Below, in pieces: positions 3,614 to 43,037 of a DNA stretch of 64,000 nucleotides. Both the position numbers and the translations under genes were made by a program. A model generated the notes under the pieces. It worked only from the letters and a program-made list of their open reading frames with translations. It was not told the DNA's origin and did not search any database. The DNA is from Candidatus Staskawiczbacteria bacterium (GTDB lineage: Bacteria > Patescibacteriota > Minisyncoccia > Minisyncoccales > Staskawiczbacteraceae). The stretch's first letter is position 1. Every line of letters starts with the position of its first letter. Location: the NCBI GenBank assembly GCA_026395175.1, contig JAPLZF010000009.1, positions 2,290-66,289 on the forward strand, given 5' to 3'.

Positions 3614-3757
3614 GATTTAAAATTTTAAATAACAAATTTTAAGTTTTAATTGAAAAACCTAATTTTCAAATGTTTAAAACATTTAGACACTTAGATTTGA
3701 TTTAAAATTTAAAATTGCAAATTTAAAATTAGTTTTAATTATTATTCCCTAATAATA

Positions 3758-3781: not shown

Positions 3782-3817
3782 CTGAAGCAAATTTTTGACC
3801 TGTGGATAACTTTTTTA

Positions 3818-5533: not shown

Positions 5534-5536
5534 ATA

Positions 5537-9286: not shown

Positions 9287-9299
9287 AATTTTTGCTCCT

Positions 9300-16342: not shown

Positions 16343-16357
16343 AATTTTATATTTTCG

Positions 16358-19266: not shown

Positions 19267-19279
19267 AAAATAATTATTA

Positions 19280-23709: not shown

Positions 23710-23738
23710 TTGCATTTATGGTTAAATTATTATATTAT
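23710..23738 (+). promoter_or_regulatory. sigma70-like promoter candidate for the plus-strand rfbF block
   Basis: The -35 is TTGCAT (23710..23715), followed by a 17-nt spacer and the -10 TATTAT (23733..23738). The promoter lies inside the 5' extension of the track ORF (23718), which supports the downstream ATG at 23772 as the real start. Confidence 0.4.
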
Positions 23739-23771
23739 ACTATAACTTACATAAAAGAAAAAATCAATAAA

Positions 23772-24569
23772 ATGGAGGATGAAAAACCAAAGATAAAAAC
23801 CATTATTTTGTGCGGAGGGACAGGCACCCGCTTGAAGGAGGAAACCGAGTTTAAGCCAAAGCCCATGGTAGACATAGGGGGAAAGCCGATTCTCTGGCAT
23901 ATTATGAAAATATATAACCATCACGGCTATGACAATTTTGTTTTGGCTTTGGGCTACAAGGGCAGTTATATTAAAGATTATTTTTTAAGGCAGAAATATT
24001 ACACTCACGATTTCCTTTTCAAGCAGTCCGAGGGCAAAATAACCAATTTTTTAAACAATGGCTCAGAATGCGATAATTTCAATATAATCTTTGCAGAGAC
24101 AGGGCTGGAAACTCCCCATGGAGAAAGAGTTTTAAAACTGAAAGATTACATAAATGAGGATATTTTTATGGTCACTTACGGCGACGGCATTGCTGACATT
24201 GATATCAAAAAGCTGGTAGAATTCCATAAAAGCCATGGGAAAATAGCAACTATCACAGGGGTCCATCCTGCCAATTCCAGATGGGGATTGGTAAACTCTG
24301 GGGATGATAATATGGTTACCGAATTTGCCCAAAAACCCATGCTTTATGATTATGTGAACGGCGGTTTTATGGTTTTTAACAAGGAATTTTTAAATTATTT
24401 GAAGCCGGGCGATATGATAGAAGATGCTTTAATGAGGCTGATACCTGGAAAACAGCTGGCTTTATACAAACACGAAAATTTTTGGTACGGAATGGACACA
24501 TATAAAGATTTTCTCCTTCTAAACGAACTTTGGGAAAAAGATCCGAAATGGAAAATATGGAAAACATAA
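23772..24569 (+). CDS. rfbF: glucose-1-phosphate cytidylyltransferase
   Basis: The N-terminus reads IILCGGTGTRLKEETEFKPKPMVDIGGKPILWHIMKIYNHHGYDNFVLALGYKG, followed by YGDGIADIDI. The roughly 257-aa length is typical of RfbF. Confidence 0.85.
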   Translation: MEDEKPKIKTIILCGGTGTRLKEETEFKPKPMVDIGGKPILWHIMKIYNHHGYDNFVLALGYKGSYIKDYFLRQKYYTHDFLFKQSEGKITNFLNNGSECDNFNIIFAETGLETPHGERVLKLKDYINEDIFMVTYGDGIADIDIKKLVEFHKSHGKIATITGVHPANSRWGLVNSGDDNMVTEFAQKPMLYDYVNGGFMVFNKEFLNYLKPGDMIEDALMRLIPGKQLALYKHENFWYGMDTYKDFLLLNELWEKDPKWKIWKT

Positions 24570-25387
24570 TTAAAAAAATAATCCGCTCATATAACGCAGG
24601 CAGAAGATATTTGTTTAAAGACACCAAATATTTATTTTTTTACATATACAGGTATTTTACTGATAATTACCATAACAAGTGCAAATTTTATACAGATGAA
24701 GAATTTGCCAATTTAATTAAAGCAGGCAAGCCTGCACTCAGATTGGGAGACGGAGAAATAAGCCTGGTGCATTTTTTGCCCACACCCAGCAACAGCCCGC
24801 AAGTTTACAGCGACGCCATAAGAAATGACTTCTTGAAAATTATCAAAAATTACAGCGACGATTCAAAATACATAATCGGAATTCCCAAAGCCGTCAATTT
24901 TACGAATGCAGAATTGAAAAAAATAAACCGCTTTGAAGTATGCCGGCAGATGAAAATCACCTACGAGATGATATTCAATAAAAACGCGAAATATTTTGAC
25001 GCGTTTGCTTTTTACAAAGACGGCGGGTTTGAAAAATTCATATTGCCGCACATAAAAAACAAAAAAGTGATAATAGCGACAAATGAAGAAAACAAGAAAA
25101 AAATAATGGATTCCAAATTGTCGTCAAAAGAATATCTTTATGTTACTTGCGGAGAAAAAAATACCTATGAAGACAGATTCAGGATGCAAAATGAGATTAT
25201 TAATATTATTGACAAAAGCGGGTTGCCGAAAGATAATTTTGCCATACTGATGTCTGCCGGGCTTTCAAAAACAATAATACATGACATGGCTGGCAAAGGA
25301 TACCAGTTAATAGACATTGGAAGGGGGCTGGAAAATTATTACGCAGGAATAAGCATCGAACACCTTCTTACGGACAAACTTTATTAA
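24530..25387 (+). CDS. hypothetical protein, possibly a GT-D (DUF1792-like) glycosyltransferase
   Basis: LRLGDGEISLV resembles the RFGDGE motif as I remember it. The C-terminal ILMSAGLSKTIIHDMAGKGYQLIDIGRG also fits my recollection of that family. The start is uncertain (alternatives at 24548 and 24557). Confidence 0.35.
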   Translation: MGKRSEMENMENIIKKIIRSYNAGRRYLFKDTKYLFFYIYRYFTDNYHNKCKFYTDEEFANLIKAGKPALRLGDGEISLVHFLPTPSNSPQVYSDAIRNDFLKIIKNYSDDSKYIIGIPKAVNFTNAELKKINRFEVCRQMKITYEMIFNKNAKYFDAFAFYKDGGFEKFILPHIKNKKVIIATNEENKKKIMDSKLSSKEYLYVTCGEKNTYEDRFRMQNEIINIIDKSGLPKDNFAILMSAGLSKTIIHDMAGKGYQLIDIGRGLENYYAGISIEHLLTDKLY

Positions 25388-25399
25388 TTTTCTAAAATT

Positions 25400-26461
25400 A
25401 TGGACAAAATAATAGAGCAGGACATAAAAGAAATAACAGATAGCATAAAAAAAATTGCACAAAAGTTGGAAGGAAAAACTCTTTTGGTTACCGGCGGAAC
25501 CGGATTTATCGGCAGTTATATTTTAGACGCTGTTTCTTTTCTTAATGAAAACCATTTCAAAAAACCCTGCAACTTAATATGTTTGGATAATTTAATTGTC
25601 GGAGACGAGCATAGGATATCGCGCTTGCTTGAAAAAGAATATTTCAAATTCATAAAGCATGACATTTCAAAGCCTTTTGAATATGCCGACTCTATAGATT
25701 TCATAATTCATGCCGCTTCAATTGCCTCTCCGACATTTTACCGGCTTCATCCCATAGAAACAATCGACGCCAATGTTTTGGGAACGCGCAATCTGCTGGA
25801 ACTGGGCGCAGAAAAAAAAATAAAAAGCTTCCTTTATTTCAGCTCCAGCGAAACTTATGGAGACCCGATTGAAGGAAATATTCCAACGCCGGAAACCTAT
25901 AAGGGAAACGTTTCTTTTACAGGGCCAAGGGCTTGCTACGACGAGTCGAAAAGATTGGGCGAAACGCTGTGCATTGCTTTTTTCAACCAGCGCAATGTTC
26001 CTGTTAAAATTGCCAGGCCTTTCAATGTTTACGGCCCCGGCATGAGATTGGACGACAAAAGAGTCATTCCGGATTTTATGAACAATGTCTTGCATAACGA
26101 ACCCATTATAATGTACAGCGACGGAAAAGATACAAGGTCTTTCTGTTATGCCACAGATGCGATAATCGGCTTTTTTAAAATATTATTATCAGATTTCAAC
26201 GGCGAACCGTTTAACGTTGGAAATGACGCAGAAGAAATATCAATGATAAAATTGGCAGAAACCATAAAAGAAATTTCAGGAAACAAAATTGAAATAATAA
26301 GCAGAGAAAGCAAAGACAAAAACTATTTGAAAGATAATCCGCACCGCCGTCTGCCTGATTTGGCTAAAATAAAAAAACTTTTGAATTACGAGCCGAAAAC
26401 AGATTTAAAAACTGGGCTTAAAAAAAGCATAGACTGGTATAAATTAGCCTATAACTTATGA
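25400..26461 (+). CDS. NAD-dependent epimerase/dehydratase, UDP-glucuronate decarboxylase (UXS/ArnA-like)
   Basis: Motifs present are LLVTGGTGFIGSYIL, SSSETYGDP and YDESKRLGE. The gene is translationally coupled to ugd through an ATGA overlap. Confidence 0.55.
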   Translation: MDKIIEQDIKEITDSIKKIAQKLEGKTLLVTGGTGFIGSYILDAVSFLNENHFKKPCNLICLDNLIVGDEHRISRLLEKEYFKFIKHDISKPFEYADSIDFIIHAASIASPTFYRLHPIETIDANVLGTRNLLELGAEKKIKSFLYFSSSETYGDPIEGNIPTPETYKGNVSFTGPRACYDESKRLGETLCIAFFNQRNVPVKIARPFNVYGPGMRLDDKRVIPDFMNNVLHNEPIIMYSDGKDTRSFCYATDAIIGFFKILLSDFNGEPFNVGNDAEEISMIKLAETIKEISGNKIEIISRESKDKNYLKDNPHRRLPDLAKIKKLLNYEPKTDLKTGLKKSIDWYKLAYNL

Positions 26462-27837
26462 AAATATCAATCATTGGCGCAGGTTATGTGGGGTTAGTGA
26501 CAGGAGTTGGGCTTGCCTCTGTGGGACACGAGGTTTTTTGCGTTGACGTAAATGAAGAAAAAGTTAAAAAAATAAACAGCGGGATATCGCCGATTTACGA
26601 AAAAGATTTGGATAAATTGCTGAAAAAAGCGTCCAGCAAAAAATTAATATCGGCAACTTCTGATTTAAAATCTGCTGTTTTGAACAGCGACATAACTTTT
26701 ATAACCGTGCCCACGCCAAGCCAAAATGACGGCGGAATTGACCTGTCTTTCATCAAAAAAATTTCGCACCAGATAGGAATTGCCCTCCTGCAGAAAAATA
26801 AATACCATTTGATAGTTGTAAAAAGCACGGTTGTGCCAGAAACAACCCAGGACATTGTTATTCCGTTGATAGAAAAATATTCGAAAAAAAACGTCGGGCA
26901 ATTCGGCGTATGCATGAATCCGGAATTTCTCCGCGAAGGCGGAGCTGTTTATGATTTTATGAACCCCGACAGGATAGTAATAGGCCAGCTGGACAAAAAA
27001 AGCGGAGACAAATTGGCAGAGGTTTATAAGAATTTCAAGACAGACATATTGAGAACTTCTCTCAATAACGCCGAAATGATCAAATATACAAACAATGCTT
27101 TGCTGGCAACTTTGATTTCCTTTTCCAATGAAATTGCCAATATCTGCCAGCAAACTCCCGGAACCGATGCTTTTGAAGTTTTGAAAGGAGTTCATTTGGA
27201 CAAAAGATTCAATCCTATTTTAAACAACAAAAGAGTCAACCCAAACTTTTTGACTTATTTATGGCCCGGTTGCGGATTCGGCGGCAGCTGTTTTCCCAAA
27301 GACGTGAAGGCGCTGGCCGCTTTCGCAAAAAAGAAAAATTACAATCCTCTTATTTTATCGGCGGTTTTGGATGTCAATAAAAAACAGCCGTTGCAGCTTT
27401 CAAGCCTGGCTGAAAAAAATCTTGGGACATTGGAAAATAAAAAAATTGCTGTTTTGGGGCTGGCTTTCAAGCCCAACACTGACGACACCAGAGAATCTCC
27501 GGCAATTTCTTTAATAAAAGAATTAATTTCCAAAAAAGCAAAAGTTTCTGTTTATGACCCCATAGTAAATTCAAATAATATCAAATCCCCTCTTTCGGGC
27601 TTGAATTTTAAATTTGCAAATTCTTTGGATGACGCCATAAAAGGCAAAGATGCCTGCCTGTTGGTTACCAGCTGGCAAGAATTTAAGAATATAACTCCGG
27701 AACTTTTAAAAAATGGAACAAAAAATCCTTTGCTGATTGACGGACGCGGATTTTTTGACAAAAAAGAATTTGAAGGAAAAACAAATTATCTGCCGATTGG
27801 AAAAAATATAAATAAAAAAAATATCCAAACATCTTAA
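26458..27837 (+). CDS. ugd: UDP-glucose 6-dehydrogenase family enzyme
   Basis: The N-terminus MKISIIGAGYVGLVTGVGLA and the catalytic-Cys motif GFGGSCFPKDV are present. The 459-aa product has the three-domain length of this family. Confidence 0.85.
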   Translation: MKISIIGAGYVGLVTGVGLASVGHEVFCVDVNEEKVKKINSGISPIYEKDLDKLLKKASSKKLISATSDLKSAVLNSDITFITVPTPSQNDGGIDLSFIKKISHQIGIALLQKNKYHLIVVKSTVVPETTQDIVIPLIEKYSKKNVGQFGVCMNPEFLREGGAVYDFMNPDRIVIGQLDKKSGDKLAEVYKNFKTDILRTSLNNAEMIKYTNNALLATLISFSNEIANICQQTPGTDAFEVLKGVHLDKRFNPILNNKRVNPNFLTYLWPGCGFGGSCFPKDVKALAAFAKKKNYNPLILSAVLDVNKKQPLQLSSLAEKNLGTLENKKIAVLGLAFKPNTDDTRESPAISLIKELISKKAKVSVYDPIVNSNNIKSPLSGLNFKFANSLDDAIKGKDACLLVTSWQEFKNITPELLKNGTKNPLLIDGRGFFDKKEFEGKTNYLPIGKNINKKNIQTS

Positions 27838-27870
27838 TTGTTTTTTAAAAAAATAAATGTATACTGAAAT

Positions 27871-27898
27871 AAAAAAAAGGCGCATTGGGTAATGCGCC
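27871..27898 (-). terminator. intrinsic terminator of the GC-rich Nudix-like gene
   Basis: A perfect 7-bp stem GGCGCAT/ATGCGCC (27879..27885 and 27892..27898) encloses a 6-nt loop. On the minus strand it is followed by T8 (the complement of 27871..27878). No T-tract follows it on the plus strand, so it is not a good terminator for ugd. Confidence 0.7.
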
Positions 27899-27922
27899 AC
27901 ATGCTCACCCAAATGGGTTGGG

Positions 27923-28501
27923 TTATGCACATTGAATATTTTCGGCAACGAATGCGCCGAGCGCCGCGGGAATAATCCTGCGCCGATGGCTTGCAATCGT
28001 CTTTGTAGGAAGCTGGTCCACAGGGAACCACATCCCTTTCATCTCGCTAGCTCTGCCCGCCTGAAGACAGCAAAGATAGACCAGCGAAAGGAAATGTCCC
28101 CGAGCTTCGTTGGGATTATTCACGTTGGCAACGAAACGCGCCGACTGAATCGTTCCGCCGCCGAACTCCTTGTCGACAAGGCGATTGAAGACGTCTTCGA
28201 TGTCTTCTCCTGAACGAAGAACCGAACCAGGGCAGTGCCATTCGCTGGGGTATGCGGTATCGTCAGGAGGCCGATGAGTCATATACACCTCTACGATGTT
28301 ATAGCTTGCATCATCTGTTTGAACAAGACCATGAGATGTTTCGCAACAAACTCCGACAATCTCCTTCCTCTTCAATTGAAGGCAGACCGCCTCCACCGCC
28401 ACGCTGACAGTAACCTTGGCTAGCGCATCGAATAACGCTGTGCCATAGGGCTTTGCGGGATTAATTCCCTGCAATCCCCGTATCAAATCCGACCTTCTCA
28501 T
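27923..28501 (-). CDS. Nudix-fold protein with a degenerate Nudix box; compositionally foreign
   Basis: EWHCPGSVLRSGEDIEDVFNRLVDKEFGG aligns position by position with W-x-L-P-G-G-x2-E-x-G-E-x7-R-E-x2-E-E-x-G. Three of the consensus acidic residues are replaced (E to R, E to L, E to K). The C-terminus GMWFPVDQLP is also Nudix-like. The start is set at the ATG at 28501 because GAAAGGAGGGAGAGCA precedes it (an AAGGAGG SD with a 7-nt spacer). A 60-nt sample at 28021..28080 is 32/60 GC, against 13/60 at 27781..27840. Confidence 0.6.
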   Translation of the reverse strand: MRRSDLIRGLQGINPAKPYGTALFDALAKVTVSVAVEAVCLQLKRKEIVGVCCETSHGLVQTDDASYNIVEVYMTHRPPDDTAYPSEWHCPGSVLRSGEDIEDVFNRLVDKEFGGGTIQSARFVANVNNPNEARGHFLSLVYLCCLQAGRASEMKGMWFPVDQLPTKTIASHRRRIIPAALGAFVAENIQCA

Positions 28502-28593
28502 TGCTCTCCCTCCTTTCAAAAGGGTTGTACAAATTAACAAAGGACAAAACTAAACACTAATCTCACTAATATATTATATACAAAATAAAAATA

Positions 28594-29760
28594 ATGTCAA
28601 TACTTTCAAAAGTTGCGCACAACATAGAAGGCCAGCCAATGTTCAAGGTTTTGGACAAGGTCCAGAAACTGGAAAAACGCGGAGAGAATATCATTCATTT
28701 TGAAATAGGAGACCCTGATTTTGACACGCCAAAACACATAGCAGAAGCTGCCTGCCAATCCATAAAAAACGGAGAAACCCATTACGCGAATTCAATGGGG
28801 CTTTACGATATGAGAGAAGCAATAAGGGAAACAACTTTGATATCCAGAAAATTCAAGCCGTCTTTAAACCAAGTTCTTATAACGCCCGGCGCAAATATCA
28901 TAATTTATCTTGCCATTTCCTGCTTGGTAAATCCCGGCGAAGAAGTGATTGTGCCAGACCCCGGATTCCCCACTTATTATTCTGTAATAAAACTTTGCGG
29001 AGTAAAGCCAGTAAGAGTTCCGTTAAAAGAAAAAAATAAATTCAGGATGTATCCGGTAGACGTAAGAAAAGCCATTACTAAAAAAACAAAGCTTATCATC
29101 ATCAATTCTCCAAACAATCCAACCGGTTCTGTAATGACTGAAAAAGAGCTGGACGAAGTTTATAAAATTGCAAAAGACAACGGCATTTATCTGCTTTCTG
29201 ACGAAGTATATTCTAGAATGATATACGGCGAAAATAAATTTTACAGCCCTTCTAAAAATGATGCCTGCAAAAACACAACAATTGTAATAAACGGATTCAG
29301 CAAAGCATTTGCAATGACAGGCTGGAGATTGGGAGTTGCCATCGGTCCTGAAAAAGTCATTGAAAAAATGGGGCTGTTGGTGCAGACATTGTGCTCGTGC
29401 GTTTCTCCTTTTGTGCAGAGAGCAGGAATCGCCGCCATAAACGGAGACCAGTCTGAAATTAAAAAAATGATGGAAATATATAAAGAAAGAAGAGACACGC
29501 TCGTCGAAGGACTGAATAAAATTCCGGGCTTGAGCTGCCTGAAAAGCGAAGGGGCTTTTTATGTATTCTGCAACATAACAAAAACAGGCATGACTGAAGA
29601 GCAATTTGCCGATTTTGCTTTAAAAAAAGCTAAAGTCGCGCTCCTGCCCGGCACTAATTTTGGGAAATATGGAAAAGGATATGTGAGGCTTACTTATGCC
29701 ACAAGCATTGAAAATATTAAAGAAGGCCTCAAAAGGCTGGAAAAAGTTTTAAAAAAATAA
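28594..29760 (+). CDS. class I/II PLP-dependent aminotransferase (AspC-like)
   Basis: NSPNNPTGS is present. The PLP-binding Lys is in FSKAFAMTGWRLG. Confidence 0.8.
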   Translation: MSILSKVAHNIEGQPMFKVLDKVQKLEKRGENIIHFEIGDPDFDTPKHIAEAACQSIKNGETHYANSMGLYDMREAIRETTLISRKFKPSLNQVLITPGANIIIYLAISCLVNPGEEVIVPDPGFPTYYSVIKLCGVKPVRVPLKEKNKFRMYPVDVRKAITKKTKLIIINSPNNPTGSVMTEKELDEVYKIAKDNGIYLLSDEVYSRMIYGENKFYSPSKNDACKNTTIVINGFSKAFAMTGWRLGVAIGPEKVIEKMGLLVQTLCSCVSPFVQRAGIAAINGDQSEIKKMMEIYKERRDTLVEGLNKIPGLSCLKSEGAFYVFCNITKTGMTEEQFADFALKKAKVALLPGTNFGKYGKGYVRLTYATSIENIKEGLKRLEKVLKK

Positions 29761-29764
29761 TCAA

Positions 29765-31564
29765 ATGCGCGTAGCAGACTACATAGCAAAATTTATTTAC
29801 GAAAACGGCACAAAGCATGTTTTTATGTTTTCTGGCGGAGGAATAATGCATCTCACAGACGGCCTTGCCTGCAATAAAAATTTGAAAAAAATCTGCGTCC
29901 ATCATGAACAAACCGCATCAATGGCAATTGAAGCATACTCAAGGCTTACAGGAAAAATGGGCGTTGGATATTTTACCACAGGTCCCGGCGCGACAAATGC
30001 CTTAACCGGTCTTGCGGGCGCATGGCTGGATTCTGTGCCCTGTCTTTTTATTTCCGGCCAGGCAAAAAGAAAAGATTCTGTGCGCATGGCAAAAATTCCA
30101 GGGCTCAGGCAAGTGGGCGTGCAGGAAATAGACATAATACCTGTCATAAAATCGGTCACAAAATATTCTGCCTTTGTAGACAATCCGAATGATATCAAAT
30201 ATCATCTCCAAAAAGCTTATTACTTTGCAAAAGAAGGCAGGCCAGGCCCTGTCTGGCTGGATATTCCGCTTGACGTCCAGGGAGCTGAAATTGATGAAAA
30301 AAACTTGAAGAGCTTTTATGCTCCCAAAGAAAAAAATAAAATATCAGACGGCGACATTAAAAAAATAATCAAATATCTCAAATCAGCAAAAAGACCTGTA
30401 ATTTTGGCGGGATACGGAGTAAGAATTTCGGGAGCTAAAAGCCAATTGTCTGATTTTGCCAAAAAATATAAAATACCCGTGGTCACAACTTATCTTGGAG
30501 TTGATTTGATTGAAGAAAACCATGCCTGCTATTCGGGAAGAATTGGAATCAAAGGAACAAGGTCGGGAAATTTAGCCGTGCAGAATTCTGACTTGCTGAT
30601 AGTGATCGCAAGCAGTTTGCCCGTGGCAGAGGTCAATTATGAATATAGCCAATTTGCCAGAGACGCCAAAATTGTTGTTGTGGACATTGATATGTCTTCG
30701 CATAAGAAAAAAACCATAAAAATTGACACTTTGATAAAGGGCGATGTTAAAGAATTTTTAGAAAAACTTTTAAAAAATTCAAAAAAAGAAAACTTTGATT
30801 TTGACAAAAACTGGCTGAAAACATGCGCAGGCTGGAAAAAGAAATATCCCGTCTGCCTGCCGGAATATAAAAAATTAAAAAATAAAATCAACCTTTATTA
30901 TTTTTTAGAAAAACTTTCGCAGAAACTTTCAAAAAATGACGTGGTCATAACAGATGCAGGCTCTGTTTTTTACGTAGGCTCGCAAGGAATAAAAATAAAA
31001 AAAGGAATGAGGTATATAACTTCCGGCGGATTGGCAACCATGGGCTACAGCCTGCCGGCCGGCATTGGAGCAAGCGTTGGACTGGAAAACAAAAGAACAA
31101 TATGCATAACCGGCGACGGTTCTTTCCAGCTTAATATTCAGGAACTGCAGACTTTGGTCCATTATAAGTTGCCCGTAAAACTTTTTGTGATTAACAACGG
31201 AGGATACCTTTCCATCAGATTTACGCAAAGAAAATTTTTCAACAGCCGTTTTATCGGAGTAGATAAGAATTCCGGAATTTCTTTCCCGAATATTGAAAAA
31301 ATCGCCAAGGCTTATGGAATAAAATTCGTCCGGGCAAAAAATAACAAAGAATTGGGCGCTGCCCTTGATAAAACTTTAAAATATAAAGGCCCTGTTATCT
31401 GCGAAATAATAAGTCCTGAAAATCAGGAAATTATTCCAGCTGTCGCTTCGGAAAAAAATCCTGACGGCGCCATGGTTTCAAAACCTTTGGAAGATATGTA
31501 TCCGTTTTTGGACAGGGAAGAATTCAAAAAAGAAATGATTATTAAGCCCTTGAAGAATAATTGA
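29765..31564 (+). CDS. thiamine-diphosphate-dependent enzyme of the acetolactate-synthase large-subunit family (YerE-like candidate)
   Basis: The 599-aa product has the three-domain ALS-like length. The ThDP motif ITGDGSFQLNIQELQTLVHYKLPVKLFVINNGGY (GDG..NN) is present. Confidence 0.75.
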   Translation: MRVADYIAKFIYENGTKHVFMFSGGGIMHLTDGLACNKNLKKICVHHEQTASMAIEAYSRLTGKMGVGYFTTGPGATNALTGLAGAWLDSVPCLFISGQAKRKDSVRMAKIPGLRQVGVQEIDIIPVIKSVTKYSAFVDNPNDIKYHLQKAYYFAKEGRPGPVWLDIPLDVQGAEIDEKNLKSFYAPKEKNKISDGDIKKIIKYLKSAKRPVILAGYGVRISGAKSQLSDFAKKYKIPVVTTYLGVDLIEENHACYSGRIGIKGTRSGNLAVQNSDLLIVIASSLPVAEVNYEYSQFARDAKIVVVDIDMSSHKKKTIKIDTLIKGDVKEFLEKLLKNSKKENFDFDKNWLKTCAGWKKKYPVCLPEYKKLKNKINLYYFLEKLSQKLSKNDVVITDAGSVFYVGSQGIKIKKGMRYITSGGLATMGYSLPAGIGASVGLENKRTICITGDGSFQLNIQELQTLVHYKLPVKLFVINNGGYLSIRFTQRKFFNSRFIGVDKNSGISFPNIEKIAKAYGIKFVRAKNNKELGAALDKTLKYKGPVICEIISPENQEIIPAVASEKNPDGAMVSKPLEDMYPFLDREEFKKEMIIKPLKNN

Positions 31565-31565
31565 A

Positions 31566-32441
31566 ATGGCTGACAACCGCAAAAAAATATTCCTTTCAGG
31601 AGGCGACGGATTCATAGGCCGAAATATATTAGAATGCCTCAACGAAAAATACAATTTTGTGTCGCCGTCTGCAAAAGAACTCGACCTGACAAATGCCCAG
31701 GCGGTATATGATTTTTTGGAAAAAGAAAAAGTTGATATTGTGCTGCACGCAGCAAATGTTGGCGGAATAAAGGGGGAAAAAGAACCGCCGGACGCAATTT
31801 CTGCAAATCTGAAAATGTTTTTTAATTTGTTGAGGGCAAAACCCTTTTACAAAAAAATGATAATGTTCGGTTCTGGCGCAGAATATGGCAAAACAAGGCC
31901 GATTGTAAAAATAAAAGAAGATGATTTTGACAAATATATTCCGGAAGACCAATACGGATTCTACAAATATATCTGCTCAAAATATGCCGAAAAAACAGAC
32001 TTTATCACCCACATCCGGCTTTTTGGAGTATTTGGAAAATACGAACAATATGAAACGCGGTTTATTTCAAATGCCATCTGCAGAGTCCTGCTTGATATAC
32101 CCATAGCCATAAACCAAAATGTATTTTTCGATTATATTTGTGCAGAAGACGTGGCTAAAGCTGTCGATTGCCTTATAGAAAAAAAAGCAAAACATAAATT
32201 TTACAACATAGGCTCGGGCAGACAGATTGATTTGATGGCAATCGCCAAAAAAATATTGCAAATATCCGGCAAAAATCTGGAAATATTGGTGGAAAACAGC
32301 GGTTTGAACAATGAATACACCTGCGACGTTTCCAGATTCTTATCGGAATTTCCCGATTTTAAATGTGCCGACTTTGAAGAATCCATAAAAAAAATGTTTG
32401 ATTATTACAAACCCCTGATTTCTCAAATAAACATAAAATAA
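31566..32441 (+). CDS. NAD(P)-dependent sugar reductase/epimerase (extended SDR)
   Basis: The Rossmann motif is IFLSGGDGFIGRNI and the YxxxK element is YICSK. It lies immediately downstream of the ThDP enzyme. Confidence 0.65.
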   Translation: MADNRKKIFLSGGDGFIGRNILECLNEKYNFVSPSAKELDLTNAQAVYDFLEKEKVDIVLHAANVGGIKGEKEPPDAISANLKMFFNLLRAKPFYKKMIMFGSGAEYGKTRPIVKIKEDDFDKYIPEDQYGFYKYICSKYAEKTDFITHIRLFGVFGKYEQYETRFISNAICRVLLDIPIAINQNVFFDYICAEDVAKAVDCLIEKKAKHKFYNIGSGRQIDLMAIAKKILQISGKNLEILVENSGLNNEYTCDVSRFLSEFPDFKCADFEESIKKMFDYYKPLISQINIK

Positions 32442-32443
32442 AC

Positions 32444-33412
32444 ATGGAAGACAAATATTTATTAAGCATCTGCATACCAACTTACAACAGAGCTGACTAT
32501 TTGAAACAATGCCTTGATAATATTGTCCGCCAATTTGGCGATAAAAAAATAAAAGATTCAATTGAAATAGTTATTTCCGACAATGCCAGCAAAGACAACA
32601 CCGAAAATCTGGCAAAAGAATACCAAAGTCGATGGGACAACATAAAATATTTCAGAAATGAAAAAAATTTGGGCCCCGACGAGAATATGATAAATTCTGT
32701 TTTGAAGGCAGAAGGCAGATATTGCTGGACCATAGGAGACGACGATTTTATACAAAATGGCGGGCTGAATTTCATAATAAGCTCGTTGGAAAAAAAACCC
32801 GTGTCCCTGCTAACTATAAATTTTAATCCCTTTATCGACTTGGATGCCTGCGCCAAAAAAATTGAAAATATAGACGAAAAGCTTCTTATGTACTTCGATT
32901 CTCCGGAAAAATTCTGGTCTGACGGCTATTGCCAGGGCATTTTTGGAATTTTAATTTTTAACAAAAAACTATGGCTTGAAATTGACAGGAATAATTACGA
33001 AAAGCTTTGGGCTTATTATGAAATTATCCTGAAAATGATTGCCCGGTCTGACTTGCCGCTGGCTCATATAAATTATCCTCTAGCATTCATAGGCCAAGAT
33101 TACAGATGGAATGAAAATGGAACCGCCCTGCTTGTTTCGGTAAATTTTAAAAAACTTTTAGATAAATTAACCGATTACGGATATAGCAAAAAATTCATCA
33201 ACACTAAAAAATTAATAATAGCAAAAAGCCTGCCGACAGCTATCTTAAGCGCAAAAAGCTACGGCCTGAAATGCTCGTTTTCCAACTTAAAACTGATTTA
33301 CAAAAATTTTTATAATTATCCAATTTATGTTTTTGCAACCGCTTTGATTTTTTTCATACCAAATACAATTGTCAAAAAATTAAAATCCATAAAAAACAAG
33401 CTTAAAAAATAA
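32444..33412 (+). CDS. GT2-family glycosyltransferase
   Basis: Motifs present are LSICIPTYNRADYLKQCLDNI, IVISDNASKDNT and GDDD. Confidence 0.8.
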   Translation: MEDKYLLSICIPTYNRADYLKQCLDNIVRQFGDKKIKDSIEIVISDNASKDNTENLAKEYQSRWDNIKYFRNEKNLGPDENMINSVLKAEGRYCWTIGDDDFIQNGGLNFIISSLEKKPVSLLTINFNPFIDLDACAKKIENIDEKLLMYFDSPEKFWSDGYCQGIFGILIFNKKLWLEIDRNNYEKLWAYYEIILKMIARSDLPLAHINYPLAFIGQDYRWNENGTALLVSVNFKKLLDKLTDYGYSKKFINTKKLIIAKSLPTAILSAKSYGLKCSFSNLKLIYKNFYNYPIYVFATALIFFIPNTIVKKLKSIKNKLKK

Positions 33413-33420
33413 AAATCCGC

Positions 33421-34734
33421 ATGCAAAAAAAAATAAAAAAAGAGATATTAAAAAAAGTAAAAGATTTTTATTCTGCCAGGCCGAAAGAAAAATTCCTGCC
33501 TGGCAAAACCTACATAAACTATGCCGGCAGAGTTTATGACGAAAAAGAGCTGGTTAATTTGGTTGACAGCTCCTTGGACTTCTGGCTGACAACCGGAAAA
33601 AATGCCGCCAAGTTTGAAAAAGAGTTTGCCGATTTTTTAGGAGCAAAACATTGCTTGCTGACTAATTCCGGCTCTTCTGCCAATCTTTTGGCTGTTTCTG
33701 CCCTTACCTCAAAAAAGCTCAAAGAAAGAAGATTAAAGCCGGGCGACGAAGTCATAACAATTGCCTGCGGTTTTCCGACAACGCTTAATCCGATAATCCA
33801 GAATGGCTTGACGCCGGTTTTTGTCGACATTGAATTGGGAAGCTACAACATTGATGCAGATAAAATTGAAAAAGCGCTTTCCAAAAAAACAAAAGCAATT
33901 TTCATAGCCCACACATTGGGAAACCCTTTTAATATCGAAAAAATTTTGAAAATAGCCAAAAAATATAATCTCTGGCTTATCGAGGACAACTGCGACGCCT
34001 TGGGCTCTGAATATAACAACAAATACACCGGCACTTTTGGAGATATTTCTACGTTCAGCTTTTATCCTGCCCACCATATGACTATGGGCGAAGGCGGAGC
34101 GATTGTGACAAATAATTTTGAACTGAAAAAAATAATCTCTTCTTTCCGCGACTGGGGCAGGGACTGCTGGTGCGAATCGGGATGCGACAATACCTGCAAA
34201 AAAAGATTCGGATGGAAACTGGGAAAAATGCCTTTCGGCTACGACCACAAATATATTTATTCGCATATCGGATATAACCTTAAAATTACCGACCTTCAAG
34301 CGGCAATCGGGCTGGCCCAATTAAAAAAACTTCCTTCTTTCATTGAAAAAAGAAGAGAAAATTTTGATGCAATTTACAATATATTGGAGCCGTACCAAAA
34401 ATATCTATTGTTGCCGAAAATAGAAAAAAACTGCAAGCCTTCGTGGTTCGGTTTTCCCATCTTAGTGAAAAAGACAGCTTGTTTTACAAGAAACGACATC
34501 GTAAATTATTTGGAAAATAATAAAATAGCAACCCGCATGCTTTTTGGAGGGAATCTTTTGAAACAGCCCGCTTATCTTAATATAAAGCGCCGAGTCCATG
34601 AAAAATTAAAGAATACCGACATCGTGATGGATGACCTGTTTTGGATAGGCGTTTATCCCGGAATCGGCAAGGAACAGATAAATCACATAGCAAAAACTAT
34701 TAAAAAGTTTTTTGAAGAAAAAAAATGTATATAG
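33421..34734 (+). CDS. PMP-dependent nucleotide-sugar 3-dehydratase (RfbH/DdhC E1 or ColD type)
   Basis: This is a DegT-fold protein of 437 aa. The Schiff-base Lys is replaced by His: FSFYPAHHMTMGEGG (His codon 34072..34074), compared with FAFYPNKQITTGEGG and FSFYANKIISTGEGG in the two true aminotransferases of this window. A Cys cluster, DWGRDCWCESGCDNTC (~34165..34197), is present. Confidence 0.75.
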   Translation: MQKKIKKEILKKVKDFYSARPKEKFLPGKTYINYAGRVYDEKELVNLVDSSLDFWLTTGKNAAKFEKEFADFLGAKHCLLTNSGSSANLLAVSALTSKKLKERRLKPGDEVITIACGFPTTLNPIIQNGLTPVFVDIELGSYNIDADKIEKALSKKTKAIFIAHTLGNPFNIEKILKIAKKYNLWLIEDNCDALGSEYNNKYTGTFGDISTFSFYPAHHMTMGEGGAIVTNNFELKKIISSFRDWGRDCWCESGCDNTCKKRFGWKLGKMPFGYDHKYIYSHIGYNLKITDLQAAIGLAQLKKLPSFIEKRRENFDAIYNILEPYQKYLLLPKIEKNCKPSWFGFPILVKKTACFTRNDIVNYLENNKIATRMLFGGNLLKQPAYLNIKRRVHEKLKNTDIVMDDLFWIGVYPGIGKEQINHIAKTIKKFFEEKKCI

Positions 34735-35753
34735 GATTTTACAGCAACCATAATTTATACAATAAAAATAAAATGCTTACAGACCCCTCTTCGACCATAG
34801 GGGATAATTTGATGTATCCTTTTTTTTATCTGGCTCAGCAACTTGAAAAATTGGGGCACAAATCAGCCACCATCGACACAGATAATATTGAGAATTTTGA
34901 TGCTGTAGTATTTTTGGAGTTCCCCACTTTAAAAAACAAATATTTCAGGCAGCTTTTAAAATTAGGGCGCGATAATATGTATCTTCTTATTTTTGAATCG
35001 CCTTTGATAAAACCGGATAATTTAGACTTGAAAAACCACAAATATTTCAAAAAAATATTTACATGGACAGACGAGCTGGTAGACAACAAAAAATATTTCA
35101 AAATAAATTACAGCCATAAAATCCCGGAAAAATTGGATTTTGACATAAACAAAAAAGGAAAACTGTGCGCTGTAATATCGGGCAATAAGCTTACTCCCCA
35201 CCCCAAAGAATTATATTCTGAAAGAATAAGAGCCATTCGCTGGTTTGAAAAAAATCATCCTGAAGATTTCGACCTTTTCGGCATGGGATGGGACAGATAT
35301 AATTTTCAGGGAAATTTTTTAGGAATAAATATAGCCAGGCTGAACCGTCTTGCATTTCTGGCAAAAATGCTGGCGCCGAATTATCCTTCTTACAAAGGAA
35401 AAATCAAGTCAAAGAATGAAACCTACAAAAAATATAAATTTTCCATATGCTATGAAAATATAGAAGGTTTTCCGGGATATATTACCGAAAAAATAATTGA
35501 CTGCTTTTTTGCCGGCTGCGTGCCAGTATATTTAGGCGCTCCGAATATAACAGACCACATTCCTGAAAATACTTTCATCGACAAAAGAAATTTTCACAGC
35601 TACGAAGACTTGTATAAATATCTCAAAAATATGAGCAATGAAAAATACGCCGAATATTTAGAGGCGATAAAAAACTTCATCAGAAGCGAAAAATTTTATC
35701 CGTTCACCGCAGAATATTTTGCAGAAACACTAATGCGGGAAATCATAAAATGA
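34725..35753 (+). CDS. GT10-family fucosyltransferase-like glycosyltransferase
   Basis: KFSICYENIEGFPGYITEKIIDCFFAGCVPVYLG matches the GT10 pattern FENS..Y(V/I)TEK..(G)xVPV. The GDP-fucose synthesis genes gmd and fcl are in the same cluster. Confidence 0.7.
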   Translation: MYIGFYSNHNLYNKNKMLTDPSSTIGDNLMYPFFYLAQQLEKLGHKSATIDTDNIENFDAVVFLEFPTLKNKYFRQLLKLGRDNMYLLIFESPLIKPDNLDLKNHKYFKKIFTWTDELVDNKKYFKINYSHKIPEKLDFDINKKGKLCAVISGNKLTPHPKELYSERIRAIRWFEKNHPEDFDLFGMGWDRYNFQGNFLGINIARLNRLAFLAKMLAPNYPSYKGKIKSKNETYKKYKFSICYENIEGFPGYITEKIIDCFFAGCVPVYLGAPNITDHIPENTFIDKRNFHSYEDLYKYLKNMSNEKYAEYLEAIKNFIRSEKFYPFTAEYFAETLMREIIK

Positions 35754-36799
35754 AAAAACCATTGCTGACAATTTGCGTTCTCTGCCACAACAGCGAAAAA
35801 TTCATTGAAAAAACCTTAAAATCCATTTTAAGCCAGGCTTATTCTGATTCCGAGATAATCATTTCTGACAATTATTCAGATGACAGCACGCCGGAAATTA
35901 TAAAGCATTTCCAAAAAGATTATCCGAAAATAATATACCGCAGGAATGAAAAGCCCTTGTTAGATGACCAAGACTATATCGGATGCTATGAGAATTACAA
36001 CACCTGTCTCAAATCCGGGCTGATAAACGGCGAATTTGTCGCTTTCTGCCACGACGACGATATTTATCATAAAGATGTTTTCGAAAAACAGATAAATTTT
36101 TTAATCAAAAATCCTGAAGCTGGAGCTGTTTTTACAATGGTGAATCTTATTAATAACAATGATAAAATAATCAGGACAACCAGAATTCCAAAAATCCTCG
36201 GCAAAAAAAATATCCATAATTTTACAGAAATATTCAACGCCCTTCTCTATAATGGAAATACTTTTTTAGAAACTCCGGCTTTTTTGGCAAGAAAAAAAAC
36301 ATTTGAAACCTCAGGATTTTTTAATGAAGACAGATTCCGCACATCGGCCGACCTTGAAATGTGGCTAAGAATAGCGGAAAAATATTCCATTGGCATCCTT
36401 GATGAAAGGCTGGTAGATTACAGGGTTGGAGGCGGAGGGCGGGCTTACCAGCGCTTGCGGAATAAAAGATCTGATTTTTTTTCAGTAATGGATTATTATC
36501 TGGAAAAAAAATCATTGGCTGCCGAAAATAAATTTTTAAGGCAATATGAATATCAAAAAAATTTCGACGACACTTTGCTGGCGCTCAATTTTCTTATGAA
36601 AGACGATATAACTGCGGCTAAAAAAATAATAAATCAGCCGGTTAAGTTGAGCATTTTTTTGGCTTTTTTTGAAAATATCACGTTGAAAAGAATGCAGGTT
36701 TCAATGCTGAGAATCATTATGTTTTTGGGAATTAATGCCGGATTTGGAAAATATCTCAAAAAAATATTTCAAACGCTTATCGTCATAAATCGCCGATGA
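35750..36799 (+). CDS. GT2-family glycosyltransferase
   Basis: The N-terminus reads LTICVLCHNSEKFIEKTLKSILSQAYSDSEIIISDNYSDDST. A downstream HDDD is present. Confidence 0.8.
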   Translation: MKKPLLTICVLCHNSEKFIEKTLKSILSQAYSDSEIIISDNYSDDSTPEIIKHFQKDYPKIIYRRNEKPLLDDQDYIGCYENYNTCLKSGLINGEFVAFCHDDDIYHKDVFEKQINFLIKNPEAGAVFTMVNLINNNDKIIRTTRIPKILGKKNIHNFTEIFNALLYNGNTFLETPAFLARKKTFETSGFFNEDRFRTSADLEMWLRIAEKYSIGILDERLVDYRVGGGGRAYQRLRNKRSDFFSVMDYYLEKKSLAAENKFLRQYEYQKNFDDTLLALNFLMKDDITAAKKIINQPVKLSIFLAFFENITLKRMQVSMLRIIMFLGINAGFGKYLKKIFQTLIVINRR

Positions 36800-38487: not shown

Positions 38488-38488
38488 A

Positions 38489-39448: not shown

Positions 39449-39450
39449 AT

Positions 39451-40308: not shown

Positions 40309-40334
40309 AATCTATAATTTAATTAGTTAAAAGT

Positions 40335-41384
40335 TCAATCTACTTTCCACCATTTATCCGGAAACTTTTCTTTTATTATTTTGTCGCCTTCGCCCGGAGC
40401 AGCCAAATTCAAGCGCCTCATATCAGAATCAACCATTATTTTTACCAGCTCGTCAAATTTAATCTTCGCTTCCCAATTCAATTTGTTTTTTGCCTTCAAA
40501 GGGTCTCCGATAAGATTTTCAACTTCTGCCGGCCTGAAATATCTGTCATCAATTTCAACATATTGCTTAAAATCGCCTAATCCTGCATATTGGAATGCCA
40601 CTTCCAAAAATTCTTTCACCGAATGGCTTTCCCCTGTCGCTATGACAAAATCATCCGGCTGGTCCTGCTGCAATATCTGCCACATTGCTTCTATATATTC
40701 CTGGGAAAAACCCCAATCGCGCTTGGCATTAATGTTGCCAAGATAAATTTTCTTTTCTAACCCTGCCTTAATTTTTGCTACGGCCATAGTAATTTTTCTT
40801 GTCACAAACGTCGGCCCCCTTCTGCATCCTTCGTGATTGAATAAAATGCCGTTGCAGGCAAAAATGCCGTAAGCTTCCCTATACATTCTGGTTATATCGA
40901 AAGAAAAAACTTTTGCGCAGGCATAAGGGCTTCGAGGATGAAAAGGAGTGTTCTCATTTTGGGGCGGAGCGTTGTTGCCAAACATTTCAGAGGACGACGC
41001 CATATAAAATTTTATCGGAAGCTTGGAATTTTTAATTGCCTCCAATATTCTCAGCGTTCCCAGGCCGTCTATGTTTACGGTTGATTCTGGCATATCAAAG
41101 CTTACTTTGACGTGCGACATTGCTCCGAGGTGGTATATTTCATCCGGCTTTATCTGGTTGATCAATCGTTCCAAATTTCCGGTGTCTGAAAGGTCTCCAT
41201 AGTGCAAAAATAATTTGACATTATTCACGTGCGGATCCTGATAAAGATGGTCTATCCTTTCTGTCGTGAAAATGCTGTCCCATCTTATAATGCCATGCAC
41301 TTGATATCCTTTGTATAATAAAAATTCTGCAAGATATGAACCATCTTGCCCGGCAATGCCTGTTATTAAAGCTTTTTTTTCCAT
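40335..41384 (-). CDS. gmd: GDP-mannose 4,6-dehydratase
   Basis: The N-terminus [30 protein letters not shown] is present, together with SSSEMFG and PYACAKVF. Confidence 0.9.
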
Positions 41385-41389
41385 AAAAT

Positions 41390-41773
41390 TTAATTAATAA
41401 TAGGAACTCTTACTGTGTCGCTTTCATATTTTCTGCCCGCCCTTGATTCGGAAATCAAATCAAGCAAAATTGTTTTCTCAATTGCTTTGAATCTGTGAAT
41501 TGTCATCGGGGGTATTATTATAAGCTCTCCGGGCCTTAAAATTATTTTTTTGACATTTGAAGGATTGCTTGCTTTTGCGAAAAAAACTTCGAATTTTCCG
41601 GAGAGAACATAATTATACTGCGTAGAAAGCTTATGGTAATGGTTGGCCCTTACGCATCCTTTTTTCGTGACAATAAGCCCCACATGATTTATTTTTTCAT
41701 TCAATAAGTCCGATATCGACCCTCTTTTGTCTTCAAATGCGGGCTTTATTTTTTTGACAATTACTTTTTTCAT
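41390..41773 (-). CDS. cupin-fold sugar ketoisomerase/epimerase (FdtA/QdtA/WxcM-like)
   Basis: The 127-aa product carries [22 protein letters not shown] (an H-x-H element) and [11 protein letters not shown] 4-nt overlap links it to the C-methyltransferase gene. Confidence 0.5.
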
Positions 41774-43011: not shown

Positions 43012-43037
43012 AATATTTTAAGATGACAATTATATTT

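Follow-up and report, generated by a model that had tools for sequence, protein, structure and literature searches.

Yersiniose A is built in Yersinia pseudotuberculosis by DdhA, DdhB, DdhC, and DdhD together with YerE and YerF, and this pathway is among the closest described counterparts of a gene cassette located in a 64,000-nucleotide stretch of a Candidatus Staskawiczbacteria genome (GCA_026395175.1, contig JAPLZF010000009.1, positions 2,290 to 66,289; the whole stretch is called the window hereafter). Like the yersiniose A genes, the window encodes a predicted RfbF-type cytidylyltransferase, an E1 3-dehydratase with His in place of Lys and a [2Fe-2S] motif (55% identical), and a thiamine diphosphate (ThDP)-dependent enzyme of the acetolactate synthase family followed by the gene for a putative NAD(P)H-type reductase; unlike them, it lacks both DdhB (the 4,6-dehydratase) and DdhD (the E3 reductase), couples a class-I aminotransferase translationally to the ThDP gene, and belongs to a bacterium of the Candidate Phyla Radiation (CPR). 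The long-branch systems ErwE/ErwF (erwiniose), MMAR_2332 (caryophyllose), MyGE (gastriose), and JanthE likewise place a YerE-like ThDP enzyme and a reductase inside a CDP-4-keto-3,6-dideoxyhexose gene set, where, as in the window, a neighbouring gene could supply a 2-oxo acid donor other than pyruvate (PMC9306805; PMC12247030; PMC12188165). In known YerE-like clusters the donor is supplied by a neighbouring aldolase, and transamination is mentioned in the YerE/ErwE/MMAR_2332/MyGE scheme only as a laboratory route to donors (PMC9306805); the long-branch donors come from a pyruvate aldolase (ErwI, MMAR_2331, MygI), whereas the window and about half of the related environmental loci carry an amino-acid aminotransferase. 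Characterised YerE-like enzymes take donors from C3 to C8 (PMC9306805), and YerE favours pyruvate (PMC12247030), which ErwE rejects; given that span, a two-carbon branch may be one of several possibilities for the window's product.

Three further systems each share one part of this arrangement. SpnQ, the 3-dehydrase of spinosyn forosamine, is an E1-type enzyme dependent on pyridoxamine phosphate (PMP) and a [2Fe-2S] cluster that, like the window E1, has no dedicated E3 gene and uses general ferredoxin or flavodoxin reductase pairs (PMC8987622); its substrate is a dTDP-2,6-dideoxy sugar and its gene belongs to an antibiotic cluster of an actinomycete, whereas the window enzyme is a close relative of CDP-type E1s within a surface-glycan island. 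ColD, the GDP-4-keto-6-deoxymannose 3-dehydratase of colitose synthesis, shares the DegT fold, the catalytic His, and the lack of a reductase partner, but not the Cys cluster that the window enzyme has (for the mechanisms of E1, ColD, and SpnQ, see PMC8987622). The eurekanate/everninomicin system (EvdS6 with the ThDP-dependent EvdU5/EvdS3; PMC10338323) resembles the window in that a glucuronate decarboxylase adjoins a ThDP branching enzyme, and its proposed acceptor is a 4-keto-pentose, as in one reading of the window weighed below; however, its ThDP enzyme is of the two-subunit pyruvate-dehydrogenase type rather than YerE-like, it has no 3-dehydratase, its carrier is UDP or TDP, and in the window the link between decarboxylase and ThDP enzyme comes from gene order only. 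The window gene set works like the yersiniose, erwiniose, and caryophyllose systems, and the sequences of its E1 and ThDP proteins agree with those families; it departs from these systems in having no E3 (as with SpnQ) and no 4,6-dehydratase, in placing a dehydrogenase/decarboxylase pair where the dehydratase usually stands, and in coupling an aminotransferase, not an aldolase, to the ThDP gene.

We regard the plus-strand genes at 23718–36799, with reasonable but not high confidence, as the form taken in this lineage by a cassette for branched 3-deoxy sugars that is widespread and shared horizontally; its product is probably a surface sugar with an extra carbon branch. Every open reading frame (ORF) of at least 120 aa in the window was scanned against Pfam, and NCBIfam models with cutoffs were also used. 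About 95 related loci with ThDP homologues, from archaea, Omnitrophota, CPR, and marine metagenomes, were gathered for comparison, and their ORFs were labelled by BLAST against the cassette proteins; a scan of genome contigs with the single ThDP protein as query gave 6 loci, and a metagenome scan with an alignment gave 80.

By its sequence, the 437-aa protein is predicted to be a true E1/RfbH 3-dehydratase. It matched NF011936 (RfbH) with 730 bits against a cutoff of 423 and the Y. pseudotuberculosis E1 (3bcx) with E=7.7e-165, at 55% identity over 430 residues. His218, the first His of FYPAHH, aligned with H220 of the Yersinia enzyme in a register anchored by the PDB chains of the wild type (3bcx, PAHH) and the H220K variant (3bb8, PAKH), so the replacement of the Schiff-base Lys proposed in an earlier sequence-only reading of this DNA is confirmed. 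The Cys cluster that the same reading named as a hallmark of PMP-dependent 3-dehydratases was also borne out: Cys191, Cys249, Cys251, and Cys259 are spaced exactly C-X57-C-X1-C-X7-C, which we take to be the [2Fe-2S] motif of the E1 literature, and these four residues and the His were invariant in 32 E1 homologues of related loci, whereas Cys255, within the previously cited string DCWCESGCDNTC, varied. A ColD-type identity was ruled out, since the Cys motif is present and the ColD chains in the PDB scored far below E1 (205–209 against 552 bits), and with the iron-sulfur motif intact the colitose-type dehydratase on GDP-sugars offered as an alternative is not indicated. The window E1 was 71–75% identical to the E1s of cassettes that contain a 4,6-dehydratase.

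Two kinds of 3-dehydratase occur in the related loci, E1-type enzymes with the four Cys and shorter ColD-like enzymes with the His and no Cys cluster. The ColD-like dehydratases (~400 aa, 35–39% identical to E1) lie directly upstream of the aminotransferase–ThDP pair in L027, L028, L030, L038, L063, and L071/L073, which derive from marine and other metagenomes; in L022, L028, and L030, an ORF of 221–222 aa stands between dehydratase and aminotransferase, and the L030 copy is a classical short-chain dehydrogenase/reductase (SDR). Additionally, in L105 (Staskawiczbacteria GCA_001821935.1, 10488-12940), which has no ThDP gene, a class-I aminotransferase gene overlaps that of an E1 homologue 61% identical to the window E1. 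This homologue keeps the catalytic His (FYPGHQ), but of the four iron-sulfur Cys the three that make up the DCxC…C cluster are gone, and it may have reverted to a ColD-like, reductase-free mechanism.

The 599-aa ThDP enzyme contains all three Pfam domains (TPP_enzyme_N, M, and C), the motif GDGSFQ…NN, located at residue 450, and HHEQ as the region of the catalytic Glu. Its best solved relative was 8rph (423 bits, 35% identity), which is JanthE, a YerE-like enzyme coupling 2-oxo acids to ketones (PMC12188165); the best acetohydroxyacid synthase (AHAS) reached 282 bits, and TIGR00118, although still the best NCBIfam match, scored 417 bits against a cutoff of 538. Neither ilvN nor ilvC, a context for which had been named among the points that would count against a sugar role, was found in the window, nor was ilvD. 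The protein therefore appears, as previously suggested, to be YerE-like and not a housekeeping acetolactate synthase, the name given to its homologues in public annotations, and the JanthE similarity together with the cassette context supports a yersiniose-type logic. Homologues with 60–76% identity were found in Staskawiczbacteria, other Patescibacteria, Omnitrophota, Methanoperedens, Methanolobus, and Nanoarchaeota, and an identical protein was present in 12 contigs, the six shown representing six different sequencing runs; the family appears strongly conserved and widely exchanged. In a neighbour-joining tree, the aminotransferase-linked ThDP enzymes, including that of the window, formed a large crown clade, with JanthE and mostly unlinked enzymes in basal positions.

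Directly upstream, as the sequence-only reading had noted, lies the class-I aminotransferase gene, whose stop is separated from the ThDP start by a gap of only 4 nt. The protein scored 300 bits against the aromatic aminotransferase (ArAT) of P. horikoshii (1dju) and keeps both the Lys that binds pyridoxal phosphate (PLP), in SKAFAMTGWR, and the Arg of GYVRLTY, which, as in class-I aminotransferases generally, we presume to bind the alpha-carboxylate; the match to ArAT and aspartate aminotransferase (AspAT) and these two residues point to amino-acid and 2-oxo-acid substrates rather than sugars. Of 65 scorable loci, 36 carry such a partner, 54–87% identical, immediately before the ThDP gene, and the codons of the two often overlap; the partner stayed with the ThDP gene both where E1 lies elsewhere (L007, L008, L010, and the window) and where E1 is absent (L100, L057, L060, and L011). 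A dehydratase was present in 13 of 18 aminotransferase-positive and 14 of 18 aminotransferase-negative loci. The idea that the aminotransferase regenerates PMP is weakened by this independence, and supply of a keto-acid donor, the other role proposed for it, would fit the tight coupling to the ThDP gene.

The 291-aa SDR gene starts 1 nt after the ThDP gene and encodes GxxGxxG and YxxxK motifs. Its position agrees with the earlier description and recurs widely: at least 42 of 72 loci have an extended SDR gene next after ThDP, and these SDRs fall into at least four unrelated subtypes; orthologues 43–50% identical to the window protein follow ThDP in L010, L014, L024, L062, and L082. By analogy, it is a putative reductase comparable to YerF. 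Copies of the GT10-family glycosyltransferase, 48–68% identical, also occur in the cassettes of L007, L100, and L105.

The recurrent order across the related loci is RfbF – 4,6-dehydratase – (3-dehydratase) – aminotransferase – ThDP – SDR – (3-dehydratase). Of the 36 loci whose sequence extends at least 6 kb upstream of ThDP, RfbF was present in 25, a 4,6-dehydratase in 25, and a 3-dehydratase in 23–27. Those 25 cassette 4,6-dehydratases carry an SDK/TDK motif, an S/T-D-K (Asp-Lys) signature typical of CDP-glucose 4,6-dehydratases; the enzymes of L007–L009 have the motif SSDKAYG and TIGR02622 as their best model (208–219 bits). In L007 (Methanolobus) and in L008 and L010 (Sulfuricurvum), the order is RfbF–4,6-dehydratase–aminotransferase–ThDP–SDR–E1, and L009 (Omnitrophota) keeps that order but has no aminotransferase. 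The other Staskawiczbacteria loci L102 and L105 have an SSDKAYG dehydratase beside RfbF. L100 reads RfbF–decarboxylase–dehydrogenase–NUDIX–aminotransferase–ThDP–GT10–GT2, with identities to the window proteins of 81% (RfbF), 71% (decarboxylase), 77% (dehydrogenase), 87% (aminotransferase), 73% (ThDP), and 68% (GT10), and has no 4,6-dehydratase, no E1, and no SDR after ThDP; L016 reads RfbF–decarboxylase–dehydrogenase–aminotransferase–ThDP. L103 (6240-10870; Proteinivorax hydrogeniformans CP159485.1, a Firmicute) combines an RfbF-like gene with an SDR, a decarboxylase of the UDP-glucuronate decarboxylase (UXS) type, a 6-dehydrogenase, and an FdtA-like cupin, again with no 4,6-dehydratase, and hints that this cultured organism processes a decarboxylase-derived 4-keto-pentose on a nucleotide sugar made by RfbF. 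In L104, the dehydrogenase and decarboxylase form a stand-alone xylose module with no RfbF nearby.

Two other features of the related loci were recorded. In L012 (Clostridium sp. AT4, NZ_LN999828.1), genes for a GDP-mannose 4,6-dehydratase (GMD), a ColD-like protein, an Fcl-like protein, one further ORF, and a ThDP homologue (44% identity) lie in this order at ~5000-11800, an arrangement that resembles the branching cassette in a GDP-linked form; the host is a cultured Firmicute. In L007 (Methanolobus, 17328-18797), L009 (Omnitrophota, 15112-16566), and another locus, L101 (12058-13254), the ThDP cassette is closely followed by genes for B12-binding radical-SAM proteins, of which the window has none; these proteins may methylate the sugar or its side chain.

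All genes listed in the sequence-only reading were found at or close to its coordinates. The first of them probably encodes an RfbF-type enzyme, as proposed, with its start moved upstream: the first ATG is at 23718, and the start previously given, 23772, corresponds to Met19. The protein matched TIGR02623 over its full length (244 bits, below the cutoff of 300), had the Salmonella glucose-1-phosphate cytidylyltransferase 1tzf as its closest solved relative (202 bits over residues 27–282; next family 69 bits), and was 43–81% identical to the nucleotidyltransferases of related cassettes. Where these cassettes have the 4,6-dehydratase, the window has a GT-D glycosyltransferase gene, which is absent from the syntenic L100. 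The SDR at 25400–26461, earlier thought able to fill the dehydratase role, was rejected for it and is instead UXS-type: it matched human UXS1 with 216 bits and TIGR02622 with only 62 (cutoff 278), carries the motifs SSSETYG and CYDESKRLGE, with SSSE and not SDK, and its stop overlaps the start of the 6-dehydrogenase gene by 4 nt. The 6-dehydrogenase fell below the cutoffs of the UDP-glucose-specific equivalogs AglM and TuaD; SDRs of this type are also paired with the dehydrogenase in L100, L016, L103, L104, and L105.

Across the 64-kb window, tblastn with three cassette dehydratases returned only epimerase- and decarboxylase-type SDRs (25–31% identity) and no S/T-D-K type SDR was found, so the statement that no clear CDP-glucose 4,6-dehydratase is present holds for the whole window. 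The other candidates were rejected as GalE/WbgU-like (38489–39448), TviC-like (18319–19326), Fcl-like (37549–38487), and Polysacc_synt_2/PglF-like (5537–7393). The only true 4,6-dehydratase in the window is GMD, a possible alternative source of a 4-keto sugar. Between the two plus-strand operons, the minus-strand NUDIX-like ORF may encode a nucleotide-sugar hydrolase; opposite-strand NUDIX genes also occur in L100 (26% identity), between dehydrogenase and aminotransferase as in the window, and in L105 (41%), beside the 4,6-dehydratase.

The earlier observation that no E3 reductase is evident likewise extends to the full 64 kb. The Pfam scan gave no Fer2, FAD_binding_6, or NAD_binding_1 domain in any window ORF of at least 120 aa, tblastn of the window with the genuine E3 of L080 gave nothing better than E=0.01, and a scan for plant-type ferredoxin motifs found nothing in the window. 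Among the related loci, a classical E3 with all three domains is found only in L080, directly before RfbF, and in L052 and L036 an FNR-only gene of 240 aa adjoins E1; all other related cassettes are without a dedicated reductase, though their E1-type enzymes keep the iron-sulfur ligands. The absence of E3 from the window is thus real but typical of this cassette family and not an oddity of this genome. On the model of SpnQ, the simplest reading would be that E1 draws its electrons from general ferredoxin or flavodoxin systems.

Coordinates, strand, and supporting matches of the cassette genes, of selected codons, and of the GMD gene in the 64-kb window.
Feature	Position	Strand	Basis
RfbF-type glucose-1-phosphate cytidylyltransferase (predicted)	23718..24569	+	TIGR02623, 1tzf
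GT-D fold glycosyltransferase	24530..25387	+	PF08759 34.6 bits
UDP-glucuronate-decarboxylase (UXS)-type SDR	25400..26461	+	human UXS1, UXS motifs
Nucleotide-sugar 6-dehydrogenase (UDP-glucose dehydrogenase family)	26458..27837	+	TIGR03026 437 bits, above cutoff
NUDIX-like ORF between two plus-strand operons	27923..28540	-	PF00293 23.5 bits
Class-I (AspAT/ArAT-like) amino-acid aminotransferase	28594..29760	+	PF00155 256 bits, 1dju
YerE-like ThDP-dependent carboligase (putative)	29765..31564	+	8rph, TIGR00118 below cutoff, cassette context
Short extended SDR (291 aa), putative reductase of a side chain or a 4-keto group	31566..32441	+	PF01370 96.7 bits
GT2 glycosyltransferase	32444..33412	+	PF00535 87 bits
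E1/RfbH PMP- and [2Fe-2S]-dependent NDP-4-keto-sugar 3-dehydratase	33421..34734	+	NF011936, 3bcx
Four iron-sulfur Cys codons	33991..34197	+	C191 33991–33993, C249 34165–34167, C251 34171–34173, C259 34195–34197
His218 codon, in place of Schiff-base Lys	34072..34074	+	alignment
GT10-family glycosyltransferase, overlaps E1 stop	34725..35753	+	PF00852 52 bits
GT2 glycosyltransferase, last gene of operon	35750..36799	+	PF00535 85 bits
GDP-mannose 4,6-dehydratase (GMD)	40335..41384	-	TIGR01472 491 bits, cutoff 415

The proposed logic is that a nucleotide-activated 3-deoxy-4-keto sugar would be formed and a carbon side chain then added at C-4, as in yersiniose, erwiniose, and caryophyllose. The RfbF-type enzyme, whose family is established, would make CDP-glucose, with CDP as the presumed nucleotide. 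A 4-keto sugar would then come from a dehydratase encoded elsewhere, from the 6-dehydrogenase and decarboxylase as a 4-keto-pentose, or from the GMD product, and E1 would remove the 3-OH by means of PMP and its [2Fe-2S] cluster, presumably with electrons from general ferredoxin or flavodoxin, as for SpnQ. Meanwhile, as their gene coupling suggests, the class-I aminotransferase could convert an amino acid into a 2-oxo acid, which the YerE-like ThDP enzyme, to judge from its family and context, would decarboxylate, adding the resulting acyl-anion equivalent to C-4 to give a tertiary alcohol. The 291-aa SDR would reduce the side-chain carbonyl, and the GT2 and GT10 enzymes of the same operon would place the sugar on a cell-surface glycan.

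Several points weigh against this proposal. With no CDP-hexose 4,6-dehydratase in 64 kb, the canonical E1 substrate is without a visible source, and no electron donor for E1 was identified within the window. Membership of the ThDP enzyme in the YerE-like group is suggested by JanthE and gene context, not by the YerE, ErwE, or YerF sequences. No alignment positions separate aminotransferase-linked from unlinked ThDP enzymes (threshold at least 90% versus at most 35%), so a special donor is not indicated and a common one, including pyruvate, is possible. The association of aminotransferase and ThDP genes is biased by sampling, all loci having been gathered through ThDP homology; where the order is dehydratase–aminotransferase–ThDP, as is common, the aminotransferase has both genes as neighbours, which qualifies the case for donor supply, and in L105, it is coupled to an E1 homologue with no ThDP gene present.

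For the source of the 4-keto sugar taken by itself, the largest weight, a little under half, was given to a dehydratase elsewhere in the genome, a clearly smaller one to a pentose route, and a slight one each to the GMD product and to a decayed pathway; these conditional weights are looser guesses than the stand-alone confidences attached to the readings that follow. A canonical CDP-3,6-dideoxyhexose with a two-carbon branch from pyruvate (yersiniose A-like), for which the 4,6-dehydratase and perhaps E3 or a ferredoxin would lie outside the window and the dehydrogenase/decarboxylase pair would make only UDP-xylose for one glycosyltransferase, is possible but doubtful. It is favoured by the dehydratase found in most related cassettes (25 of 36), by the orthology of RfbF and E1 to those of dehydratase-containing cassettes, and by the lack of specificity-determining ThDP positions tied to aminotransferase linkage, which leaves room for a common donor such as the pyruvate preferred by YerE (PMC12247030); nevertheless, the three diverged loci represented by the window, L100, and L016 have no dehydratase beside RfbF, the glycan genes of this genome are concentrated in one island, and a pyruvate donor makes a dedicated aminotransferase hard to explain. 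Alternatively, RfbF, the 6-dehydrogenase, and the UXS-type decarboxylase might lead from NDP-glucose through NDP-glucuronate to NDP-4-keto-xylose in place of the 4,6-dehydratase, and E1 and the ThDP enzyme, acting on this 4-keto-pentose, would give a 3-deoxy-4-C-branched pentose. Such a route has a precedent in eurekanate, where a ThDP-dependent branch on a decarboxylase-derived 4-keto-pentose has been proposed (PMC10338323). Further in its favour, the closest syntenic loci, L100 and L016, share the order RfbF–UXS–6-dehydrogenase–(NUDIX)–aminotransferase–ThDP with no SDK-type dehydratase; L100 has an RfbF stop overlapping the UXS start and, since it has no E1, needs another 4-keto acceptor; L103 (Proteinivorax) has its RfbF-like–SDR–UXS–6-dehydrogenase–FdtA-like cupin set without a 4,6-dehydratase; and the window dehydrogenase meets only the generic NDP-sugar dehydrogenase model and no UDP-glucose equivalog. 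We nonetheless think it unlikely, given that the decarboxylase resembles an ordinary xylose synthase (the human UXS1 match), that keto-releasing and reducing decarboxylases are not distinguishable by sequence (PMC10338323), that the pair is a common stand-alone UDP-xylose module (as in L104), that L102 and L105 keep the classic dehydratase beside RfbF, that the window E1 is so close to the E1s of dehydratase-containing cassettes (71–75%), and that, to our knowledge, no CDP-glucuronate pathway has been described. Its fully specified form, in which the pair would have taken the place of the 4,6-dehydratase in this Parcubacteria lineage and the route would run from CDP-glucose through CDP-glucuronate and CDP-4-keto-xylose to E3-independent 3-deoxygenation and ThDP addition of an amino-acid-derived acyl group, is less likely still; if true, the product would be a 3-deoxy-4-C-branched pentose whose side chain comes from a transaminase, and both this class of sugar and the nucleotide-sugar route to it would be new.

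The aminotransferase might instead serve the 3-dehydratase, regenerating PMP or glutamate in a ColD-like, reductase-free cycle, which would explain a dispensable E3. It adjoins the dehydratase too in the order dehydratase–aminotransferase–ThDP of many cassettes, overlaps, in L105 and in the absence of a ThDP gene, the E1 homologue that keeps the His without the Cys cluster, and accompanies 7 of 9 ColD-like dehydratases (His, no Cys cluster) in this ThDP-seeded sample, and E3 is nearly always absent. This explanation is nevertheless given a low probability: dehydratases are about as frequent with the aminotransferase (13 of 18) as without it (14 of 18), aminotransferase and ThDP occur together with no dehydratase within 10 kb in L100, L057, L060, and L011, and E1 and ThDP occur without an aminotransferase in L009, L020, and L101; moreover, the iron-sulfur ligands kept by the window E1 point to electron transfer rather than hydrolysis, and ColD regenerates its own PMP (PMC8987622). 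It is very unlikely that E1 takes GDP-4-keto-6-deoxymannose from the GMD at 40335–41384 as its substrate, with GDP-linked, colitose-like 3-deoxygenation followed by branching, even though the window has no other true 4,6-dehydratase, the ThDP cassette has GMD and Fcl-like genes in its company in L007, L012, L014, L052, L063, L064, and L072, and L012 (Clostridium sp. AT4) has the order GMD–ColD-like–Fcl-like–ThDP; the window dehydratase is an iron-sulfur, CDP-type E1, 55% identical to the Yersinia enzyme and not ColD-like, ordinary GDP-fucose use explains GMD, the Fcl-like gene, and GT10, and RfbF would be left without a role. A decayed pathway is a further reading: once the 4,6-dehydratase was lost, RfbF and E1 would have become remnants without function, leaving the glycosyltransferases and the modules for xylose and fucose as all that matters. 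The related Parcubacteria loci are indeed mosaic (L100 without E1 and SDR, L105 without ThDP and SDR), indicating frequent gain and loss in the lineage, but every window gene has its full length and its catalytic motifs intact, 12 contigs carry the same ThDP protein (the six shown from six sequencing runs), and the operon is tightly packed, so we hold decay to be highly improbable. Finally, a housekeeping acetolactate synthase large subunit, as the best NCBIfam match (TIGR00118, 417 bits) and the public names of the homologues would have it, is effectively refuted by the score below the cutoff of 538, the preference for JanthE over AHAS (423 against 282 bits), the lack of ilvN, ilvC, and ilvD in the window, and the embedding of the ThDP gene in sugar cassettes across ~95 loci.

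Sugars of the C-branched deoxy type are rare surface components of immunological importance, and the ThDP enzymes of their pathways are valued as biocatalysts in making chiral tertiary alcohols. The YerE-like family as such is already known, since more than 200 clusters, with products mostly unknown, have been predicted in silico according to a review (PMC12247030). A literature search gave no account of the aminotransferase-coupled, E3-less form or of the decarboxylase-linked form, which is weak evidence of novelty, the survey of more than 200 clusters cited in that review lying outside the search. The comparison shows a close relative of the branching machinery to be common in uncultivated lineages (CPR, methanogens, Methanoperedens, Omnitrophota, and marine microbes), where the cassette is usually without the textbook E3 and often has an amino-acid aminotransferase in the operon. 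If the aminotransferase supplies the donor, amino acids would provide a second way of diversifying the side chain alongside the known aldolase route, and these organisms would be predicted to display branched sugars not known so far. The missing 4,6-dehydratase, with the decarboxylase pair in its stead, is a concrete, testable lead to a pentose-based variant.

The window has a GC content of ~36%, and no tRNA genes or Rfam families were found in its 64 kb. The cassette comprises two plus-strand operons, 23718–27837 and 28594–36799, the latter taken as one operon because its genes are separated by gaps of 1–8 nt or overlap throughout. It lies in a region, from ~5.5 to 57 kb, in which nearly all genes concern glycan synthesis; a genome-reduced CPR bacterium gives ~48 kb to surface glycan chemistry. 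This island encodes an initiating sugar transferase, numerous GT1, GT2, GT4, and GT10 glycosyltransferases, methyltransferases, three DegT-family proteins, the GMD/Fcl-like pair, a C-methyltransferase, a module forming phosphoadenosine phosphosulfate (PAPS), a sulfotransferase, two flippases, and an O-antigen-ligase-like protein. A second sugar pathway on the minus strand (36783-44147) holds genes for a methyltransferase, the Fcl-like SDR, the GalE/WbgU-like epimerase, an FkbM methyltransferase, the true GMD, a cupin, an NDP-hexose C-methyltransferase (PF08421/PF08484), and a DegT aminotransferase, which probably make GDP-fucose and a C-methylated amino deoxy-sugar; the latter, if true, would be a second kind of branched sugar within the same island. 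An asparagine-synthase-type amidotransferase gene (19280-21166, minus strand) adjoins genes for a TviC-like UDP-GlcNAcA 4-epimerase and a UDP-GlcNAc 2-epimerase (17220-19326, minus strand), which suggests an amidated uronic acid in the glycan. At 47352-49556 (minus strand), a 734-aa protein fuses a pyruvate-kinase barrel domain and a PUA_2 domain to ATP sulfurylase, an unusual combination, and its gene adjoins those for adenosine phosphosulfate (APS) kinase and a sulfotransferase (46822-47349 and 46089-46838), a set that represents PAPS supply for a sulfated glycan. The island is bordered on the minus strand, at 1205-5533 and 57794-61453, by genes for large, secreted-looking proteins of 802, 571, and 1219 aa with peptidoglycan-binding and TIG domains.

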